From positions 57,495 to 121,494 of the forward strand of contig JAZQOV010000003.1 of the NCBI GenBank assembly GCA_045628045.1: a stretch of DNA of 64,000 nucleotides, in the 5' to 3' direction. Under the pieces are notes generated by a model. It ran no database searches and was not told the origin of the DNA. It saw only the letters and a program-made list of their open reading frames with translations. Below are positions 28,570 through 51,311 of this stretch, one piece after another. Source of the DNA: Bacilli bacterium. Lineage in GTDB: Bacteria > Bacillota_I > Bacilli_A > RFN20 > CAG-826. Position 1 is the first letter of the stretch. Each line of letters starts with the position of its first letter. A program made the translations under genes and the position numbers.

Positions 28570-29424
28570 TTATTCAATCTCCTCATAATAATATGAAGTA
28601 TCGATTCCTTTCATAAATAATTCTCTATCATCGATTTGATCAGTTAATGCATTTTTAAGAAGGAATTTAATTTTATTATCTTTTATTTGGCTTTCTTTCA
28701 TAGCATCGAAATAATCTGCTTTTTCTATCTTAGACCAATCTACACACTTTTTAAGATTTTTAATAAAAATTAAATCTAGCCAAATACGCGTCGATCTTCC
28801 ATTACCTTCCATAAAAGGATGTGCAATATTCATTTCAACATACTTTTCTACAATGTGATCAAATGTGTCTTCAGGCATTTTATCTATTGTTGGAAGAATC
28901 TGAGGTAAAAAATCACCATTCGCAAAAACAAAACCACCTTTAGAAATTGTTTTTGATCTTATCTGACCGGCGAAAGGATATAATCCTTCAAATAAATAAG
29001 CATGTATTTTTTGAAGACAAACAGTTGTCCCAATTTCATCGCTATAAATAAGTTCTGTTTTGTAAAATTGATAAGCTTTTCTTTTACTTTGCTCATCAAT
29101 TGGATCAAGCATTCCTTTTATCCAATCGCTGATTTCTTTTTTATATTTTGAAGGAATTATTGTAATTAAAAGTCTAACCCCTTCTTCATTAATAACTTCA
29201 GAAAGATATTTTTTACCATCGTCAGCATACAATTTCAGTTGTCCACAAAATGAAGACAACTCAGGATTTCTCACTTTAACATTATTCCAATACCTACGCG
29301 GAGAATTAGGGTCTACTAAAACTGCGATAAAATCAACTGCTGAATACCACCAGATTGACTTTTCATTATCCCAAACAGCTTGTATTTGTTTATTGTTAAA
29401 ATATCTGATTGGATGTTTTATCAT
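28570..29424 (-). CDS. Fic-family protein with an N-terminal Bro-N-like domain
   Basis: Canonical Fic motif HPFMEGNGRSTR. The N-terminus (IRYFNNKQIQAVWDNEKSIWWYSAVDFIAVL) is Bro-N/KilA-N-like. The start is taken as ATG 29424; the track extension to a TTG at 29463 lacks an RBS. Confidence 0.65.
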   Translation of the reverse strand: MIKHPIRYFNNKQIQAVWDNEKSIWWYSAVDFIAVLVDPNSPRRYWNNVKVRNPELSSFCGQLKLYADDGKKYLSEVINEEGVRLLITIIPSKYKKEISDWIKGMLDPIDEQSKRKAYQFYKTELIYSDEIGTTVCLQKIHAYLFEGLYPFAGQIRSKTISKGGFVFANGDFLPQILPTIDKMPEDTFDHIVEKYVEMNIAHPFMEGNGRSTRIWLDLIFIKNLKKCVDWSKIEKADYFDAMKESQIKDNKIKFLLKNALTDQIDDRELFMKGIDTSYYYEEIE

Positions 29425-29451
29425 ATTATATATGATAACATAACATAATTC

Positions 29452-29475
29452 AGTTGTCCACAAAATTGGACAACT
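29452..29475. promoter_or_regulatory. Palindromic operator-like site overlapping the putative -35 of the BroN-Fic gene
   Basis: AGTTGTCCA-CAAAAT-TGGACAACT perfect 9-bp inverted repeat. TGGACA-17-TATCAT lies immediately upstream of the ATG, which suggests a leaderless mRNA. Confidence 0.45.
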
Positions 29476-34187: not shown

Positions 34188-35615
34188 TTAATTCTCAGCT
34201 CGATTACTAGCTCCTTTTCTTTTCTTAAAATATAAAATCATAAATCCAACCGTTGTTACAAGGAATACTCCTGCAGTGACGGAGAGCAAAATAATAAGCG
34301 AACCGCTTGACATAAGGGTTCCGTTTCCGTCAGAAGGCGTATTATTGTAAAAGGTACAATCTTTTGTAAATGTAAAATCATCACTTGAAGCATAGACAAG
34401 ATAGTATGCGCCGCCTTCTTTTGATGCTTTGCAATCATGTATTTCTAAACACCATAAAGATTGATTTCTATCATTTCCATATACGCCACCGCCGTATTCT
34501 GCAGAACAATTAAATATTGTTATGTGGTCTAAATCGTTATTAAATCCAGAAGCGTAAATGCCACCACCATATCTACCAGCTTCACAACCCGAGATTTCTA
34601 AAAATGAAGACAAACTTCCATACAAACTTCCTTGCTCACAATCGCTATAAATAGCACCACCATCAAATTTGGCAGTACAATCCTTAATTGATGTTTTGTC
34701 AAAAGAGCATCTTTGAAATGCATATTGACTTCTTTGATAATCGTAAGCCAAGTTATCTTCTATATAAATAGCACCACCATAATATGCTGAACAACCTTCA
34801 AAAGTTGATCCTTTTACAGTAAGAATTGGATTGTTACCACCATGAATGATATCTTCAAGATAAACCGCGCCACCATAATATGATTGACAATCATTAAATG
34901 TGCACCCAGTTAAAGATATGGTGTTGATTTTTTCCATGCAAATTGCACCACCATATCCTGTCGAACAACAATTTTCGAATTTACAATTTACAAAACTTGC
35001 ATCATGACAACCGTCACCCATTGCAAATATTGGGTAAGATAAATTAGTTTTGAAACCAAGAATTGTGGTGTTATACACGTCTAATCTACCGGTATCAACC
35101 CAAATTGAACAATTGTATTCATCGCCTGAACGTGAAGTTTTAATTGTTCCACCGTCGCCATTAATGGTAAGACTATAATCTAATTTCCAATAGTCGCCGT
35201 GATTTATTTCTAAGGTTTTTCCGTGTAAATTGATTGTTATCGGCATAGGTAAATTATTACAAAGTTTCAAACTTCTGATGACATAGTCTTTTTCAAGATC
35301 AATAATACACTTTAACGAGGTTTTTTCACTCCAATAACTATAATAATTTGAATGCATTTCTTGAAAGGTATAATCCATGTTTTTATCTTTGAGTTCATAA
35401 ATCATGTCTTCACCTTCATATACTCTAACTACTAATCCACTAACATCTAAGTGTGGAATATCTTTAGAAATCCCAATTGTTCTAACTGGCATTTCAGATT
35501 CAGTGTCAGCATGTACAGGAGCTATTTTATTAGAACTTCTTATGCATAAATTTGTGCCAACAACCATAAACGTGCAAAATAAACCAACTAAAATTGTTTT
35601 TGTTATTTTTCTCAT
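34188..35615 (-). CDS. Surface protein with chlamydial Pmp-like repeats (GGAIY/FxxC) and a C-terminal TM anchor
   Basis: Signal peptide, 6 or more repeats of C...YGGAIY and FxxC/FxxN, then a C-terminal TM followed by KKRKGASNRAEN. RBS GAGGT. Confidence 0.55.
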   Translation of the reverse strand: MRKITKTILVGLFCTFMVVGTNLCIRSSNKIAPVHADTESEMPVRTIGISKDIPHLDVSGLVVRVYEGEDMIYELKDKNMDYTFQEMHSNYYSYWSEKTSLKCIIDLEKDYVIRSLKLCNNLPMPITINLHGKTLEINHGDYWKLDYSLTINGDGGTIKTSRSGDEYNCSIWVDTGRLDVYNTTILGFKTNLSYPIFAMGDGCHDASFVNCKFENCCSTGYGGAICMEKINTISLTGCTFNDCQSYYGGAVYLEDIIHGGNNPILTVKGSTFEGCSAYYGGAIYIEDNLAYDYQRSQYAFQRCSFDKTSIKDCTAKFDGGAIYSDCEQGSLYGSLSSFLEISGCEAGRYGGGIYASGFNNDLDHITIFNCSAEYGGGVYGNDRNQSLWCLEIHDCKASKEGGAYYLVYASSDDFTFTKDCTFYNNTPSDGNGTLMSSGSLIILLSVTAGVFLVTTVGFMILYFKKRKGASNRAEN

Positions 35616-35823
35616 TTTAAATTTAACCTCGAAATTTACGTTATTTTATTTTATAGTATTTTATACTAAAAGTACAATAGATTTGTAACCCTCATGCTCG
35701 TTATATCGTAAAAGAAATTAAACGTCAAAAATCTATAGAAAAATAGAATTTTCTTGGCCAAATTTCAGAGAAGACATCGAGTATATTTCTTCTCGTTACG
35801 ACGGTTAACCATCAGTTCTTCCT

Positions 35824-35968
35824 GGAGGTTCGCTAGGTTCAAGCCTCTAAACCAAACAAAAAGACACCAAAAGGTGTCTGTTATTGTCTTGTCTTGCTGC
35901 AACAAAGTTAATATTTTTTATAACAAGTGCAACGAAGTTAATAGATTGAACGCGACGAAGTTAATATA
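35824..35968. repeat. Intergenic module copy A: tRNA-3'-half-like segment, terminator hairpin, CTTGTCTTG, then triple direct repeat GCAAC(G/A)AAGTTAATA at spacings 30 and 24
   Basis: About 85% identical over roughly 90 nt to copy B at 38563. The hairpin GACACC-AAAA-GGTGTC carries compensatory changes relative to B. Repeats lie at 35899, 35929 and 35954. Confidence 0.6.
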
Positions 35969-36473
35969 TTCTTTCCAATATTGGAGTAACTTCAATTATA
36001 TTTTTACTTTTATCAAGATGGTTTTTGTCCAAAACTGTCTTTGGTCTAACGCAGTATTTAGCATCAATAAAACCAATAGTACATTCTCCATTAGTAGTTG
36101 CAATAGTACATGAGACTTTGCCTTTTTCAAATTTTTCTTGGAATAATAATTTTTGTTCAAATACTGAATCAAAATTAACAAGATGTTTGAGCTTTTGCCT
36201 AACAAAACCTTTTATTTCTTTTGATGAATCACAATCAAAATCGTCTTCCGCAATAGACTCATTAACACATCTATCAAAAAACTCTTCAGCACTTAAATTA
36301 GTTTTTACACCAGTTAGATGTAGAAAATTAGTCTTATAAAATCTCAAAATATATTTGTCAGAAACAACAAAAAGATTTGAAGAAACAGTTATTTTTACAT
36401 TTAATAATTTTGAATAACTTTTTGCTGCATCAACTAGTTGATTTCTTGTTCTTGTTTTAAATGAGATCTGCAT
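35961..36473 (-). CDS. Hypothetical protein (170 aa from ATG 36473)
   Basis: ORF with no recognised motif (contains FLHLTGV). It is flanked by the repeat modules. The upstream track Met would read through the GC-rich element. Confidence 0.35.
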   Translation of the reverse strand: MQISFKTRTRNQLVDAAKSYSKLLNVKITVSSNLFVVSDKYILRFYKTNFLHLTGVKTNLSAEEFFDRCVNESIAEDDFDCDSSKEIKGFVRQKLKHLVNFDSVFEQKLLFQEKFEKGKVSCTIATTNGECTIGFIDAKYCVRPKTVLDKNHLDKSKNIIEVTPILERIY

Positions 36474-36603
36474 AAGTAATAAAAAAAGCGTTTTAAGGTG
36501 CGCCACCACGACTTGGACAGGTTTAAGGTCTCTGGCCCGACGAATTGGGTGGTCTTTTTATGTCTCCCATCCCTCTTGACACTTAGATTATAACAAAGTA
36601 ATA

Positions 36604-36714
36604 AAAAAGATGCAATTAAATGCATCTCAAATTTTCTTGTCTTATTGCAACGAAGTTAATATTTCAAATCTTCACTGCAACGAAGTTAATAGTCGCTAGC
36701 AACGAAGTTAACAT
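36604..36714. repeat. Intergenic module copy M: hairpin GATGCA-ATTAAA-TGCATC, then triple direct repeat GCAACGAAGTTAA(T/C)A at spacings 30 and 22
   Basis: Same three-repeat architecture as copies A and B, with repeats at 36647, 36677 and 36699, but no tRNA-like segment. Confidence 0.55.
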
Positions 36715-36962
36715 ATGTTTTTCGCGCTTTTCGACACTAAAATGATAACTTTTATAATTTAATGTTTCAACAACCAATTATCATAATTTCATTGTATTAA
36801 TATGTCTTGTTGTAACAAAATTAACACAATCAATTTAAATTTTTAAAAAAATAAAACTGTTATGATTACTTGTCTCATCTTTATCGCAATAATGATTTTT
36901 TAACCAAAACGAACGGACATGATAACTTTATCTGAACAACAATCTTATATCACAGATTTTCA

Positions 36963-36992
36963 ATAAAAAAGCAGGACTATAAGTCCTGCTAA
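36963..36992 (-). terminator. Rho-independent terminator after the antiporter gene
   Basis: AGCAGGACT-ATA-AGTCCTGCT hairpin with TTTTTT on the minus strand. Confidence 0.7.
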
Positions 36993-37016
36993 ATACATCA
37001 AACATCTATTGTGATA

Positions 37017-38276
37017 TTAAACACCATTATCAACGTTTGATATGCATGGATTAAGCAGCCTCTTGTAGCTCAAATTCATAACAAGAGAACTTAATGGCGC
37101 AGTTATTAAAATAGATAAAGCAGAAACAGAAAGCACTATAATACCTGCAGCAATAACAGCTTCTGCTCTAGAATTACCATTAGCAAGCATTTGATTTCCT
37201 AAATCTAATAGTCCACCACCAATCGAGGCTTGAACTGTGGCTTTTGGCAAATAAGAAATAGTGACAAAAGACCTCTCTTTAAAGTTTAAATCAGTTTTAA
37301 TTAAGCATCCTTGAACCATTAGTGATCTTGCGGTTAATGAGATTGCTAAGATTACTAGAGCCGGCAAAATGTAAGTTGGAACGTATTCTAATCTAATTGA
37401 AGCTCCAACTAAGAAAAATAGGAACATCTCAGCAGGAATCCATACTTTAGAAGCTTTAGCACTTAATGCTGTAGCCTTTTCTTTTCTAAACATTCTAATT
37501 ACGATACACATAGAGATTGTTGCAAGTAAAGATGAGAAGCCTACATAAGGACTAATTACTTCTTCTAAAGCTACAAAGCCTATACCTATAGCGATTATTA
37601 AGAGTAATTTCATTGAATCTCTCATGTGCACCTTTCCAAAAATAAGCTTTAATAAGAAGCCAAAACCTACACCAATTGCAACACCAATAACGATAGATAA
37701 CAAAATGTTTACAAAAGCCATGGCGTTTACATTACCGCCAGCTTCAATACTTATAAAAGTCTGATAAAAGACAATCATTACGATGTCATCAATGCTACTA
37801 CCAGCTAAAACTAATTGAGGAATACCCTTCTTAGTTCCAACTTTTTCATCCATTAGTCTTGTCATCATTGGAATTACTACTGCAGGAGACACTGCACCAA
37901 GTACTGAACCAAGTAAAAAGGACTCAACATATGTTAAATCAAAGAATAAAGGGGCAACTAAGCCTACAACAATCATTTCAACTACTGCAGGCATAAAAGA
38001 CATCATAATAGCAGGCCTTCCTACTTTCTTTAAGTCTGCTATATCAAGCGATAAACCAGCTTTAACTAAAATAATAATTAAAGCAATTTTCCTTAAGTAA
38101 GGTGAAATTGCAGCAAGATTAGGATCAAATGCTCCTATTGCATTAATCAAAATGCCTAATAAAAGGTAACCAATTAATGCTGGAACCTTAATCTTATTAA
38201 GTAATAGGAAAATTATTGCTCCACCACCTAGAATGATTAATAAGTCTAGAAAGAATAACATTTTGATACCTCCCAA
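37017..38276 (-). CDS. Cation:proton antiporter (Na+/H+ exchanger family)
   Basis: 419 aa, about 11-12 TM segments, CPA-type conserved segments. GGGAGG RBS 7 nt upstream. Confidence 0.75.
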   Translation of the reverse strand: MGGIKMLFFLDLLIILGGGAIIFLLLNKIKVPALIGYLLLGILINAIGAFDPNLAAISPYLRKIALIIILVKAGLSLDIADLKKVGRPAIMMSFMPAVVEMIVVGLVAPLFFDLTYVESFLLGSVLGAVSPAVVIPMMTRLMDEKVGTKKGIPQLVLAGSSIDDIVMIVFYQTFISIEAGGNVNAMAFVNILLSIVIGVAIGVGFGFLLKLIFGKVHMRDSMKLLLIIAIGIGFVALEEVISPYVGFSSLLATISMCIVIRMFRKEKATALSAKASKVWIPAEMFLFFLVGASIRLEYVPTYILPALVILAISLTARSLMVQGCLIKTDLNFKERSFVTISYLPKATVQASIGGGLLDLGNQMLANGNSRAEAVIAAGIIVLSVSALSILITAPLSSLVMNLSYKRLLNPCISNVDNGV

Positions 38277-38562
38277 AGTAAATAAAAACTGATGTATCTA
38301 AAACAATGTCTAGATATCATCAGCATCAAATGCGGTTTGATTTAATCAGGGAGATATCATTCCCGAGATGTATGTATCATAACAAATTTATTTTAAAAAA
38401 CAAGAACTTGTCTCTCTTCCTGAACTTGTTTCTCTTCCTTGCCTATTGAAATTCAATAGCTTTACTTTTCAGAATTCCGTACAATAAAAGCCGGCTCATT
38501 AACTAGTGATTGCTTCTACTTTGTTACGAATCAATTGGGATTAGTTAATGAGTTTTTATTAT

Positions 38563-38704
38563 GGAAGGTCGCTAGTTCAGCCTCTAAGCCAAACAAAAAG
38601 GACACATAGTGTCCTGTTATTGTCTTGTCTTGCTGCAACAAAGTTGATAGTTTTTAAAGTCATCGCAACGAAATTGATAGTTACAAAAGCAACAAAGTTG
38701 ATAG
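38563..38704. repeat. Intergenic module copy B: tRNA-3'-half-like segment, terminator hairpin GGACAC-ATAGT-GTCC, CTTGTCTTG, then triple direct repeat GCAAC(A/G)AA(G/A)TTGATAG at spacings 30 and 24
   Basis: Homologous to copy A, with repeats at 38635, 38665 and 38689. It lies about 80 bp from the tRNA-3' direct repeat R2. Confidence 0.6.
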
Positions 38705-38786
38705 TCATGTTTTTGTAACTTTTTATTTTATATATAAGATATTGAATTTTTACAATAAAATTCGTCTATCCTGCCCTCATCAAAGG

Positions 38787-38810
38787 GTGCGGAGGTAGGA
38801 TTTGAATTTC
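38787..38810 (-). repeat. Direct repeat R2 of the tRNA(CAU) 3' end (att-like core copy)
   Basis: The minus strand reads TTCAAATCCTACCTCCGCAC. That matches the T-loop and acceptor 3' strand of the tRNA at 42930-43007 with a single G to A difference. Confidence 0.6.
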
Positions 38811-42733: not shown

Positions 42734-42756
42734 CTGCGGAGGTAGGATTTGAAACC
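42734..42756 (-). repeat. Direct repeat R1 of the tRNA(CAU) 3' end
   Basis: The minus strand reads GGTTTCAAATCCTACCTCCGCAG, identical to R2 over 19 nt. Confidence 0.6.
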
Positions 42757-42929: not shown

Positions 42930-43007
42930 TGGTTGCGGAGGCAGGATTTGAACGCTGCGACCTCAAGGTTATGGGCCTTGCGAGCTACCAGGCTGCTCCA
43001 CTCCGCG
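42930..43007 (-). tRNA. tRNA-Met (CAU), initiator-like
   Basis: CGCGGAGTGGAGCAGCCTGGTAGCTCG...CCCATAA...GTTCAAATCC...CCGCAACCA. The D-arm is identical to E. coli tRNA-fMet, with a C1:A72 mismatch, CAU anticodon and encoded CCA. The T-stem has one irregular pair. Confidence 0.75.
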
Positions 43008-47590: not shown

Positions 47591-47626
47591 TTAATTGCAT
47601 ATTTTTCACGAATTTTATGCAATTAA
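47591..47626. repeat. 36-bp palindromic element (IR-L) TTAATTGCAT-N16-ATGCAATTAA overlapping the Fic 3' end
   Basis: Perfect 10-bp inverted arms, nearly identical (one substitution) to the copy at 48701-48736. Confidence 0.6.
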
Positions 47627-48663
47627 ATTTTGTAATATTTAGCGTATTTGCCACTCTGAATCATTTGAATTTTTAATGAATCAGTTAACTCTTTTAATGA
47701 TTTTTCAATTGTGGTTCTAGATAAATTAATTAAAACTTCCTCAATTTCAGCTTTTGTTATAGGTAGTTTTGAATCATTAATAACTTTAAGCACCTTATCG
47801 TTTGCAACACCACTCATGTTGTTGGTTTCAATAATATATGCGAGTTTTTCATAACCTTCCTTGAGACATTTGAGCATAAAATGGGTAAAGAATGCATAAT
47901 CATTTTTGTCTTCATGCCAACCTATTGATGATTTTTCTAAGGTTTCATAGTATTCATTCACGTTGCTTAAAATAACATACGACAAAGAATAATATTGATC
48001 TAATTCATAACCATACTTTAGCAAAAGGAATGTTGTTAATAATCTAGAAATGCGGCCATTGCCATCATAAAAAGGGTGAATACATAAAAAATCAGTAATA
48101 AAGACAAAGATTGTTAATAATTTGTTACAATCTGGATCTTTCATGCATTCGTTAAATTGATAGACAAGGTTTCCCATTAAATCATCAACCTCTTCTGGTT
48201 TTGAAGGGATAAAGACTGTTCTAACCAAATTTCCTTTTGAATCAAACTCTCTAATATAGTTTTGTTCAACCTTGTATTTACCGCCAAATTCTGGAGTAAT
48301 TGATTGATATAAAAAGTAATGTAAATCCTTAATGTAAGACTCAGAAAGAGATTGATATTTGTAAACTTGAAATACATTCTCTAATGCATTGTTGTAGCCT
48401 AGCAAGAAATATTCTTCTTTGGTTTCAGGGTCCATATGTTTTAGCAAAATATCATTTTCTCTATATTTTTCAACTTTAATGCCCTCAATTTCATTTGAAC
48501 TAGTTACACTTCTTCTTTTATTTAAATCATGTAAACGGTTCAATTTAATCTTTGACGGTAAATTAAAAGTTTTGCCTCTATTAACCTCAACTGATTGGAT
48601 CATTGAAATTATCAGCGGATCATTTAGTTTTAACACTTGTTCTTTAAGATTTATGAATTTCAT
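47623..48663 (-). CDS. Fic-family protein (AMPylation-type motif)
   Basis: HPFYDGNGRISRLL canonical Fic motif; 346 aa from ATG 48663. TTGACT-17-TATTAT lies directly upstream of the ATG, suggesting a leaderless transcript. Confidence 0.75.
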   Translation of the reverse strand: MKFINLKEQVLKLNDPLIISMIQSVEVNRGKTFNLPSKIKLNRLHDLNKRRSVTSSNEIEGIKVEKYRENDILLKHMDPETKEEYFLLGYNNALENVFQVYKYQSLSESYIKDLHYFLYQSITPEFGGKYKVEQNYIREFDSKGNLVRTVFIPSKPEEVDDLMGNLVYQFNECMKDPDCNKLLTIFVFITDFLCIHPFYDGNGRISRLLTTFLLLKYGYELDQYYSLSYVILSNVNEYYETLEKSSIGWHEDKNDYAFFTHFMLKCLKEGYEKLAYIIETNNMSGVANDKVLKVINDSKLPITKAEIEEVLINLSRTTIEKSLKELTDSLKIQMIQSGKYAKYYKI

Positions 48664-48669
48664 GTCTAT

Positions 48670-48736
48670 ATAATAATATAGCCAAAAATCTGAGTCAAGT
48701 TTAATTGCATATTTTTCGCGAATTTTATGCAATTAA
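48670..48736 (-). promoter_or_regulatory. Leaderless-type promoter (TTGACT-17-TATTAT) plus upstream palindromic IR-R operator-like element for the Fic gene
   Basis: The -10 ends 6 nt before the ATG. The 36-bp palindrome at 48701-48736 sits just upstream of the -35. Confidence 0.45.
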
Positions 48737-50000: not shown

Positions 50001-50936
50001 TTACAACGAGAAAAATGCTTTTTTAAGTAAAAAGTCTTTTACCTTATTATTTTTTGATTCATAGAATTCTACTAATAACAATTTGTATTCTTTATCTAAA
50101 TTATCTGGAACTGAGATATATCCAAGACCATGACTAATTAAATAGGTATTTGCAAATATAAGAGCAGTTCTTTTATTACCGTTACTAAAAACTTTAGTTT
50201 TTACAAGATAACAAAGCAAATCAATTGCTTTTGCAACGTCATCATTTTTACTATTTAAAATTTGATTAATATTTTGAATAACTCTTTCTTTTGTAGGAAT
50301 TTCAGGTCTATACGAGCAGCCTCCAATAATTACATTGGTTGTTCTAATTTGATCTGGATAAGAAATTTGTCGATCATTAACATATCCTGCAATCGTGCAA
50401 AGTACATCAAAGGTTGTTCCTCTCCTAACTGTGTCTTCATCAAGAACGTATTGCCAAGCATTTTTTAAATTTAAAATTGTTAATGTATCATCAAAACTAA
50501 CATTTTTAGAAGAACCCTTTTCCAAGATTTCTTCTGTATCTAAAAACGTAGCACTTACCCCTTCAACTATTGCTTGACCGTAAATTATCGTATTTAAGTT
50601 ATTTCTTACAAAATCTAAATTTATTAAAACTTTAGAATCAAGATCATTTATGTTTACACCAAGTTTAGCTAGTTTTGTTTTAACACTGCGTAATTTGAAA
50701 TTTAATTCTTTTACACTTTTTGTTAATTCTTTTAAATCATTATAGAAAGATTCAGTGTAAACTCCAGCATATTTAGAAGATAAACGATCATATTTCTTAT
50801 ATCTAAGATATATATATTTCTTTCCGCTAATTTCTTTTACTTCTGGATAACCTTTAAAATTAATTTCTTTTAATTGAAATTCTAGATCTTTCTTTTGAGT
50901 AAGAAGTTCATTAACTAAATCATTACTATTTCTCAT
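50001..50936 (-). CDS. Fic/Doc-family protein with a degenerate Doc-like motif (KVFSNGNKRTA; catalytic His absent)
   Basis: The C-terminal NGNKRTALIFAN resembles Doc HxFx(D/N)GNKR, but the His is Lys; 311 aa. Confidence 0.5.
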   Translation of the reverse strand: MRNSNDLVNELLTQKKDLEFQLKEINFKGYPEVKEISGKKYIYLRYKKYDRLSSKYAGVYTESFYNDLKELTKSVKELNFKLRSVKTKLAKLGVNINDLDSKVLINLDFVRNNLNTIIYGQAIVEGVSATFLDTEEILEKGSSKNVSFDDTLTILNLKNAWQYVLDEDTVRRGTTFDVLCTIAGYVNDRQISYPDQIRTTNVIIGGCSYRPEIPTKERVIQNINQILNSKNDDVAKAIDLLCYLVKTKVFSNGNKRTALIFANTYLISHGLGYISVPDNLDKEYKLLLVEFYESKNNKVKDFLLKKAFFSL

Positions 50937-51236: not shown

Positions 51237-51311
51237 TGGTGGACCCAGTAGATCCTGACACTACAACATATCGGTTATGGGCCGAGTGCTCTTCCTTTGA
51301 GCTATGGGTCC
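51237..51311 (-). tRNA. tRNA with CAU anticodon (Ile2/lysidine-type by similarity) and a non-canonical T-loop
   Basis: GGACCCATAGCTCAAAGGAAGAGCACTCGGCCCATAACCGAT...GTAG-TGTCAGGAT-CTAC-TGGGTCCACCA. Acceptor and anticodon arms are fine. The T-loop lacks TTC, so this may be a pseudo-tRNA or a variant. Confidence 0.5.

Follow-up and report, generated by a model that had tools for sequence, protein, structure and literature searches.

What kind of element places the same three short direct repeats, at almost constant distances, at three neighbouring sites of one genome? This question is raised by a 64-kb stretch of contig JAZQOV010000003.1 from a Bacilli bacterium (assembly GCA_045628045.1), hereafter called the window. 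A preliminary description of the sequence had proposed three clusters of ~16-nt repeats with fixed spacing, and the motif scan bore this out. With up to two mismatches allowed, the window contains nine copies of the 15-nt motif GCAACRAAGTTRATA, all on the plus strand, whereas dinucleotide-preserving shuffles contain 1.24 on average and 5 at most. The start-to-start intervals are 30 nt, followed by 23 (module A), 22 (module B) or 24 nt (module C), "module" denoting a repeat cluster together with its conserved flanking elements:

35899, 35929 and 35952, plus strand: repeat starts of the first cluster (module A)
36647, 36677 and 36699, plus strand: repeat starts of the second cluster (module B)
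38635, 38665 and 38689, plus strand: repeat starts of the third cluster (module C)

A conserved triple-repeat element in uncultured Bacilli

A two-repeat pattern scan was performed on GTDB species representatives, viral contigs and metagenome contigs. Matches were found in six GTDB species representatives (L001 to L006), all of them metagenome-assembled genomes of uncultured "Bacilli"/Firmicutes, and the module is single-copy per genome in these six species. The metagenome scan yielded 15 matches, of which one (L020) was a true module, the other 14 being coding low-complexity runs or unrelated tandem repeats; another locus, L029, carries two further modules. The set used for comparison comprised 13 modules, three from the window and 10 from elsewhere in uncultured "Bacilli" genomes and metagenome contigs, with nine of the latter harbouring three repeats and one (L029-2) two. 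The repeats are therefore not confined to this region, and their spacing is kept: all 12 three-repeat modules show intervals of 22–24 and then 29–30 nt, in minus-strand order. L029-2 has lost the middle repeat, which leaves a single 30-nt interval.

The module is thus a real, conserved element, and it is undescribed in Rfam, in phage and plasmid collections and in the literature searched. No module was found in the viral-contig scan or by blastn against 72,556 plasmids and 50,697 phages, a full-text literature search for the motif string returned nothing, and Rfam 15 gave no match at the gathering score and only spurious ones (19–22 bits) at E ≤ 10.

A comparison of 30 repeats showed no variation at 12 of the 16 core positions of (C)TATTAACTTCGTTGC. 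The spacers between repeats are nearly unrelated in sequence between subgroups, while their lengths (~8 and ~15 nt) are kept. The three window modules represent different sequence subgroups, and module B has the repeat block alone in common with the other two. A ~90-nt segment common to two copies had also been described; a shared segment does exist, but it joins the first and third clusters and extends over ~145 nt at ~82% identity (35822-35966 versus 38562-38703).

Promoter, repeats and terminator on the minus strand

With regard to the plus strand, (C)TTGTCTT precedes every cluster, with an exact CTTGTCTTG before the first and third clusters and CTTGTCTTA before the second. A terminator-like hairpin likewise precedes each cluster, eight such sites being present in 3.6 kb compared with 1.3 expected. 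The preliminary description had placed this hairpin in front of the repeats; the hairpin is indeed there, but it makes a better intrinsic terminator on the minus strand, where it follows them. On that strand, which carries all genes in this part of the window, the stems are followed by TTTTTGTTTGG or TTTTTTATT, which identifies the hairpins as canonical intrinsic terminators. Read in this direction, the repeats are followed by AAGACA, the terminator and the leader of the next gene, and then by that gene itself. This gene encodes a 475-aa protein without a Pfam match after module A (open reading frame, ORF, 34188-35615, minus strand), a PBECR4 nuclease-fold protein (PF18813) after module B, and a Na+/H+ exchanger (NhaP; 37017-38276) behind a fluoride-riboswitch-like element after module C.

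The same anatomy was observed throughout the 13 modules. Each of them has a −10 box (TATCAT, TAGAAT, TAGAGT, TATAAT, TATAAA or TATATT) whose distance upstream of the first repeat is nearly constant, and in 11 the promoter matches at least 9 of 12 positions, with −35 boxes such as TTGACT, TTGAAA, TTGCAA, TTGAAT and TTGTAA at a spacing of 16–18 nt. RAGACA stands exactly 3 nt past the last repeat (13/13), and a hairpin with a U-run begins 11–21 nt past it (13/13; dG −6 to −14 kcal/mol). At random window positions, such a promoter is met with at a rate of 0.5% and such a terminator at 2.5%. Furthermore, the terminator hairpins comprise at least nine unrelated sequences that recur at the same place, in line with the earlier proposal that the hairpin is under selection. 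The two-repeat module L029-2 retains its promoter, RAGACA box and terminator.

In the window, the parts of the three modules lie at the following positions:

35995-36000, minus strand: −10 box of module A (TATAAT), inside the 3′ end of a PBECR4 ORF and without a good −35 box
35952-35966, 35929-35943 and 35899-35913 (35899-35966 overall), minus strand: the three repeats of module A
35885-35895, minus strand: 3′ box of module A (AAGACAAGACA), with the breakpoint of L001 homology at 35890
35854-35879, minus strand: terminator of module A, AGACACC UUUU GGUGUCU and then UUUUUGUUU
36742-36770, minus strand: promoter of module B, TTGAAA (36765-36770), 17-nt spacer, TATCAT (36742-36747)
36699-36713, 36677-36691 and 36647-36661 (36647-36713 overall), minus strand: three copies of UAUUAACUUCGUUGC in module B
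36636-36643, minus strand: 3′ box of module B (AAGACAAG), the final conserved stretch ahead of the point where homology with other genomes ends
36600-36628, minus strand: terminator of module B, GAGAUGCAUUUAAUUGCAUCUU and then a U-run
38727-38755, minus strand: promoter of module C, TTGTAA, 17-nt spacer, TATAAA
38689-38703, 38665-38679 and 38635-38649 (38635-38703 overall), minus strand: three variant motifs UAUCAAYUUYGUUGC in module C
38621-38631, minus strand: 3′ box of module C (AAGACAAGACA)
38591-38615, minus strand: terminator of module C, AGGACAC UAU GUGUCCU and then UUUUUGUUU

The PBECR4 stop codon falls within the first transcribed repeat of module A. The promoter hexamers of module B and their offset are the same in the L020, L003 and L006 homologues, and its terminator overlaps the −35 box of the PBECR4 promoter (TTGCAT, 17-nt spacer, TGTTATAAT; 36587-36615).

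Besides the terminator, the body of the module has no conserved secondary structure in either single-sequence or alignment folds. A 5-bp hairpin between leader and repeat, with one apparent compensatory change in module C, had been seen by eye and was dropped when the alignment fold gave it no support. Nor is any reading frame conserved in the body, as the 23/30 spacing puts successive repeats out of frame. Module C alone stays in frame, its spacings of 24 and 30 being multiples of three; its 43-aa ORF (38577-38708, minus strand), which encodes TINFVA three times, is conserved in no other module and is probably accidental.

The anatomy points to a short, independent transcription unit with a predicted length of ~125–150 nt. 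Tentatively, we take each module to be a minus-strand gene for a small non-coding RNA that is transcribed on its own and acts as a multivalent binding platform, a reading to which we give somewhat less than an even chance. Transcription would start from the sigma-70 promoter, and the RNA would consist of a leader of ~20 nt, three unstructured 15–16-nt motifs (C)UAUUAACUUCGUUGC separated by spacers of ~8 and ~15 nt, the conserved RAGACA box, an 11–21-nt trailer and the intrinsic terminator. The three single-stranded motifs would be the working parts, with the RNA serving as a sponge or decoy for a sequence-specific trans-acting partner encoded elsewhere, putatively an RNA-binding protein or a complementary RNA; in the latter case, the base-pairing targets would carry GCAACGAAGUUAA-like sites. 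We infer transcription, the function of the RNA as such and the sponge mechanism from sequence. The two-repeat module L029-2, otherwise intact, fits a repeat-number-tolerant RNA better than a fixed DNA–protein architecture. The idea that the module is the target of a trans-acting factor, raised in the preliminary description, is possible, and more likely so at the RNA level.

Several observations weigh against the small-RNA reading. A good −35 box is missing from modules A and L001, which may represent no more than 3′ untranslated regions of the PBECR4 gene. Some copies are decaying, with one repeat left in L024 and truncated modules in L025 and L026, which makes the element dispensable for some genomes at least. 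Because the examples all belong to a narrow clade, common descent accounts for part of the conservation of the promoter offset. The search for partners or targets brought to light neither, and no site complementary to the motif was found in the window or in the related loci compared. The conserved spacer lengths and the invariant 15–16-nt motif would also suit a DNA-binding protein, and the modules coincide with synteny breakpoints, which could mean a function in recombination. In a separate duplex search, the motif gave nothing better than shuffled controls against the window tRNAs and all minus-strand sequence.

If the modules are transcribed as predicted, they would form a small RNA (sRNA) family of a poorly studied clade of gut Bacilli, located in a hypervariable hotspot downstream of tRNA-Met where defence and accessory genes (restriction-modification (R-M), AbiEi, nuclease toxins) are swapped. 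If the reading is true, the module would mark such hotspots and would offer a way to its binding partner.

Repeat-like sequences were also seen outside the modules. A decayed solitary repeat with AAGACAT (UUAAUUUUGUUACAACAAGACAU) lies at 36802-36824 (minus strand), between the terminator of the Na+/H+ exchanger and the module B promoter. At the corresponding place in L020, just upstream of the −35 box, there is a perfect repeat in inverted orientation (265-281; GATAACTTCGTTGCAAT). In L025, another triple direct repeat (TGTAGGAAYTCGAA, period 20; 1733-1786) is found upstream of the PBECR4 terminator-promoter block, which is the place of module B; it has no copy in any other related locus compared.

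Genomic setting and candidate partners

The modules are found where sets of accessory or defence genes end on their downstream side. In the window, L020 and L002 these sets contain R-M systems; L004 has MoxR/VWA/DUF488/DuOB genes, L005 has radical-SAM and zinc-ribbon genes, and L003 and L006 have FeoB. L020 is syntenic with the window, with a tRNA-Met, a copy resembling the attachment (att) repeat described below, a helix-turn-helix (HTH) gene, a different R-M system and a module 86% identical to module B.

The comparison of related loci revealed that identical blocks may follow either a tRNA gene or a module. In particular, the block of terminator, promoter, leader and PBECR4 follows tRNA-iMet in L022, tRNA-eMet in L027 and module B in the window, and the block of terminator, att copy and HTH gene follows tRNA-Met in L020 and the window, or a module in L006 and L029. 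In both of these independent comparisons homology starts right after ...CCA or ...GACA. The module can thus replace a tRNA-Met gene ahead of identical downstream blocks and so fills the position of an RNA gene. Blastn homology to other genomes begins sharply at TGTCTT in all three window modules (35890, 36638 and 38626). PBECR4 together with module A is 95% identical to L001, with different flanks. Based on this match and on the different subgroups, the modules were probably acquired with their cargo and not duplicated locally, with the exception of the 3′ part common to A and C.

The preliminary description had also pointed to serial island insertion, and the neighbourhood does turn out to be an insertion site next to a tRNA-Met gene (42930-43007). 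Two true copies of the tRNA-Met 3′ end (TTCAAATCCTACCTCCGCA, 19 nt; minus strand), which that description had missed, lie at 42735-42753 and 38788-38806; the two have the same sequence, with a single mismatch to tRNA-Met itself. Between them lies a 3.9-kb island with genes for an AbiEi-like protein, an HTH protein, a Tsp45I-type restriction enzyme, an N4/N6 methylase and a 219-aa protein and none for an integrase, and this arrangement marks the region as a serial-insertion hotspot. These att repeats are a different sequence from the module and lie outside it. The 219-aa protein, encoded upstream of module C, had no informative match in PDB, PHROGs, Pfam or PADLOC.

A tRNA-derived segment had been regarded as part of the module, and this did not hold. 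The segment in question and its second copy are as follows:

35823-35854, plus strand: tRNA-3′-half-like segment (GGAGGTTCGCTAGGTTCAAGCCTCTAAACCA), shared with the module C side only and outside the conserved module
38562-38591, plus strand: second, more degenerate tRNA-like copy, from the A/C comparison

It accompanies two of the three window modules, being absent beside module B and beside all 10 modules from other sources. The best local alignment of GGAGGTTCGCTAGGTTCAAGCCTCTAAACCA to the window tRNAs (tRNA-Pro and tRNA-Met, same sense) was matched by 6–7% of shuffles (p about 0.06–0.07), and no tRNA covariance model matched it even at E ≤ 10. Possibly the segment derives from a tRNA by decay, but it does not belong to the conserved element.

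With regard to possible partners encoded nearby, PBECR4 was examined in seven homologue contexts. The closest homologues (L001, L024 to L026) have a module next to them, intact or in decay, and none was found beside the homologues in L022, L023, L027 and L028. The association is thus not obligatory, and PBECR4 was rejected as an obligatory partner. The exact sequence of the window PBECR4 protein is not on record. The PBECR4 genes have a regulatory candidate of their own: a ~95-nt element, GUCAAGAGGGAUGGGAGACAUAAAAAGACCACCCAAUUCGUCGGGCCAGAGACCUUAAACCUGUCCAAGUCGUGGUGGCGCACCUUAAAACGCUUUUUUU, is almost invariant upstream of them in the window (36478-36585, minus strand), L022, L023 and L024 to L028, where the encoded proteins are only 65–89% identical to that of the window. 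It has no Rfam match, its alignment fold is a nested structure without compensatory changes, and it is a candidate for a new cis-regulatory RNA or RNA antidote.

An RstR-like HTH protein (184–213 aa) is encoded near modules at four loci (the window, L020, L003/L006 and L029); it was set aside as a partner, the family being tiny and the L029 copy disrupted. L029 encodes a 196-aa serine resolvase, with "module 1" on one side of it and variable cargo plus "module 2" on the other, and L005 and L006 fit the same order. The resolvase was likewise rejected as a partner: a palindrome adjacent to it, AAGACTAATCAAGCTAATTAGTCT, is unrelated to the repeat, the family is very widespread (more than 7,800 relatives at E ≤ 1e-40), and five other resolvase loci (L030 to L034) lack a module. 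As an observation in its own right, the RstR-like HTH gene and the convergent 196-aa resolvase recur as a pair (L029 1541-4170, L006 5509-7204, L005 3168-3444, L034 4143-9137) that adjoins variable, often defence-type cargo (EcoRI-type methylase, GmrSD/HNH, TIR, radical SAM, LGT); in L029, L006 and L005, the resolvase has AAGACTAATCAAGCTAATTAGTCT on its upstream side. This pair may be a separate hotspot or mobile unit.

No recombinase was found in the window itself, in agreement with the preliminary description: Pfam found no tyrosine integrase or other recombinase among the 34 window ORFs scanned, and tblastn over the window detected no serine recombinase. A possible linkage of the copies to integrase genes was not borne out either, with no Phage_integrase domain in the ORFs scanned at related loci and the resolvase near some modules (L005, L006, L029) only, not consistently.

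Further features of the region were recorded. The 475-aa protein has at least four internal repeats of ~66 nt (34637-34993, minus strand) with a weak POMP-repeat match; with its N-terminal signal-like and C-terminal hydrophobic segments, it is probably a repetitive surface protein. The fluoride-riboswitch-like aptamer (38304-38373, minus strand) scored 33.0 bits against a gathering score of 34 (E = 1.4e-6). Three separate Fic/DOC-domain proteins are encoded in the window (28570-29463, 47623-48732 and 50001-50936), and Rfam calls a tRNA at 51240-51311 (minus strand, 43 bits), directly beside tRNA-Ser, that ARAGORN did not report.

Alternative readings and known systems

A protein-dependent attenuator or 5′ leader, in which an RNA-binding protein on the repeats modulates the terminator as in TRAP, HutP or PyrR control, would account for a promoter, repeats and a terminator upstream of a co-directional gene in every case, as well as for the conserved spacing of the repeated RNA motifs. 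We nevertheless regard it as very unlikely, in view of the unrelated downstream genes (the 475-aa surface-type protein, PBECR4 nuclease, Na+/H+ exchanger, a carboxylesterase and an HTH protein), some of which have a promoter or riboswitch of their own (the fluoride riboswitch; PBECR4 TTGCAT-17-TATAAT). Moreover, homology ends before the terminators, whose sequences are unrelated, so that no conserved antiterminator pairing is possible. Highly improbable, in our judgement, is an RNA antitoxin of type III toxin-antitoxin kind that would act against the PBECR4 (Barnase/EndoU/colicin E5-D/RelE-like) nuclease. Module B does show the ToxI-like order of promoter, direct repeats, terminator and RNase-fold gene, module A or its remnants overlap PBECR4 3′ ends (window, L001, L024, L025, L026), and the setting is that of a defence island. 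The repeats are, however, not constant-period tandem copies (22–24 versus 29–30 nt) and their spacers are unrelated; 9 of the 13 modules neither overlap a PBECR4 gene nor directly precede one, and only module B precedes an RNase-fold gene. The PBECR4 homologues without a module also speak against it, as does decay of the module beside an intact PBECR4 gene in L024 to L026, which would be lethal for a true antitoxin, and PF18813 is not a ToxN, CptN or TenpN family. Least probable of all we consider the decayed end of a DDE transposon of the Tn7/Mu type, with a TGT terminus and three transposase-binding sites. The conserved block begins with TGT(CTT), and its arrangement can be likened to the left end of Tn7, a terminus with spaced direct repeats. 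Against this, no inverted partner end exists in the 64 kb or at any locus, all copies having one orientation; no transposase gene stands beside any module, the one rve-family gene being 3.4 kb away in L006; and neither the single copy per genome in six species, nor a motif far better conserved than in a relic, nor the promoter and terminator would be expected. None of the attenuator, antitoxin and transposon-end readings passes all of its defining tests.

At the DNA level, the module could be a recombination or cassette-junction site, with the repeats as accessory sites for a trans-acting recombinase, exchange near the TGTCTT boundary and cargo genes accreting between modules as in integron or cis-mobilizable element (CIME)/staphylococcal cassette chromosome (SCC) arrays. 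This we hold to be unlikely, for all that speaks in its favour: the sharp stop of homology at TGTCTT, three intact modules and one decayed module in direct orientation with single cargo units (NhaP, PBECR4) between them, the signs of separate acquisition in the subgroup differences and the L001 match, the conserved spacer lengths, and the two direct modules of L029 that bracket HTH gene, resolvase and cargo, an order repeated in L005 and L006. Yet no recombinase was found among the window ORFs scanned, the palindrome of the resolvase is unrelated to the repeat motif, and the resolvase-HTH-cargo loci L030 to L034 do without a module. The breakpoints are not fixed, A/C homology ending inside the module and A/L001 homology at AAGACA; there is neither an inverted partner nor a duplicated core, the two-repeat variant is otherwise intact, and the adjacent island has real att repeats of another sequence. 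The near-fixed-offset promoter and ever-present terminator would also go unexplained. We think it quite unlikely that the modules are junction elements of an undescribed gene-accretion system at the tRNA-Met-linked hotspot, in which each cargo unit would travel with its own module, modules would recombine with each other or with the 3′ end of an RNA gene, arrays would be built with no integrase encoded locally, and the module transcript might be a guide, scaffold or trans-acting antidote. If the DNA-level reading were true, it would mean an integrase-independent route of cassette accretion. The preliminary description had thought of integrase arm sites, iterons or an operator array, all of which leave the sigma-70 promoter and terminator on the opposite strand of every copy unexplained. 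Arm sites in particular are not supported, with no integrase among the ORFs scanned, a tRNA-like core that is not conserved, and att repeats (TTCAAATCCTACCTCCGCA) that differ from the module and lie outside it. An iteron replication origin was discarded, with no rep gene and no plasmid, phage or viral-contig match, as was a Xer/dif-like junction (CAAGAAAATT resembles part of difSL), which showed no second arm and no GC-skew switch in the window.

Among known systems, the arm arrays of tyrosine integrases (lambda P′1-P′3 type) resemble the module in having three direct repeats near a tRNA-linked hotspot, with a weak tRNA-3′-like piece by two copies; the promoter and terminator anatomy is unexpected for arm sites, and no integrase was found. 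Serine resolvase res sites likewise group three protein-sized sites within ~70 bp, and the direct pair of L029 brackets a resolvase segment, whereas the subsites of the module are direct rather than inverted, its motif is unrelated to the resolvase palindrome and the window has no resolvase. In contrast to integron attC sites, the module body has no dyad symmetry or fold, and no integrase was found. ToxI, CptI and TenpI share with the module the order of promoter, direct repeats, Rho-independent terminator and downstream gene as well as the defence-island setting, but the module has repeats of unequal period, a downstream gene that usually encodes no nuclease, and no ToxN-family toxin. Like tRNA genes that serve as island landmarks, the module holds the same position relative to identical trailer, terminator and cargo blocks at the edge of variable DNA; it differs from them in having no tRNA fold and no tRNA covariance-model match.

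With regard to the small-RNA reading, the nearest counterparts are protein sponges of the CsrB/RsmZ type and multi-seed sRNAs such as LhrC, which have no sequence or Rfam relationship to the module. As predicted for the module, these are short RNAs with their own promoter and intrinsic terminator, and they carry several copies of one short single-stranded motif in variable number (two or three in the module). The motif of the module, in contrast, is 15–16 nt long and almost invariant, far longer than the GGA or UCCC motifs, and it lies outside hairpin loops with fixed spacer lengths. If transcribed as predicted, the modules would thus constitute a new sRNA family of unusual design, with three long, invariant and unstructured motifs at fixed spacing.

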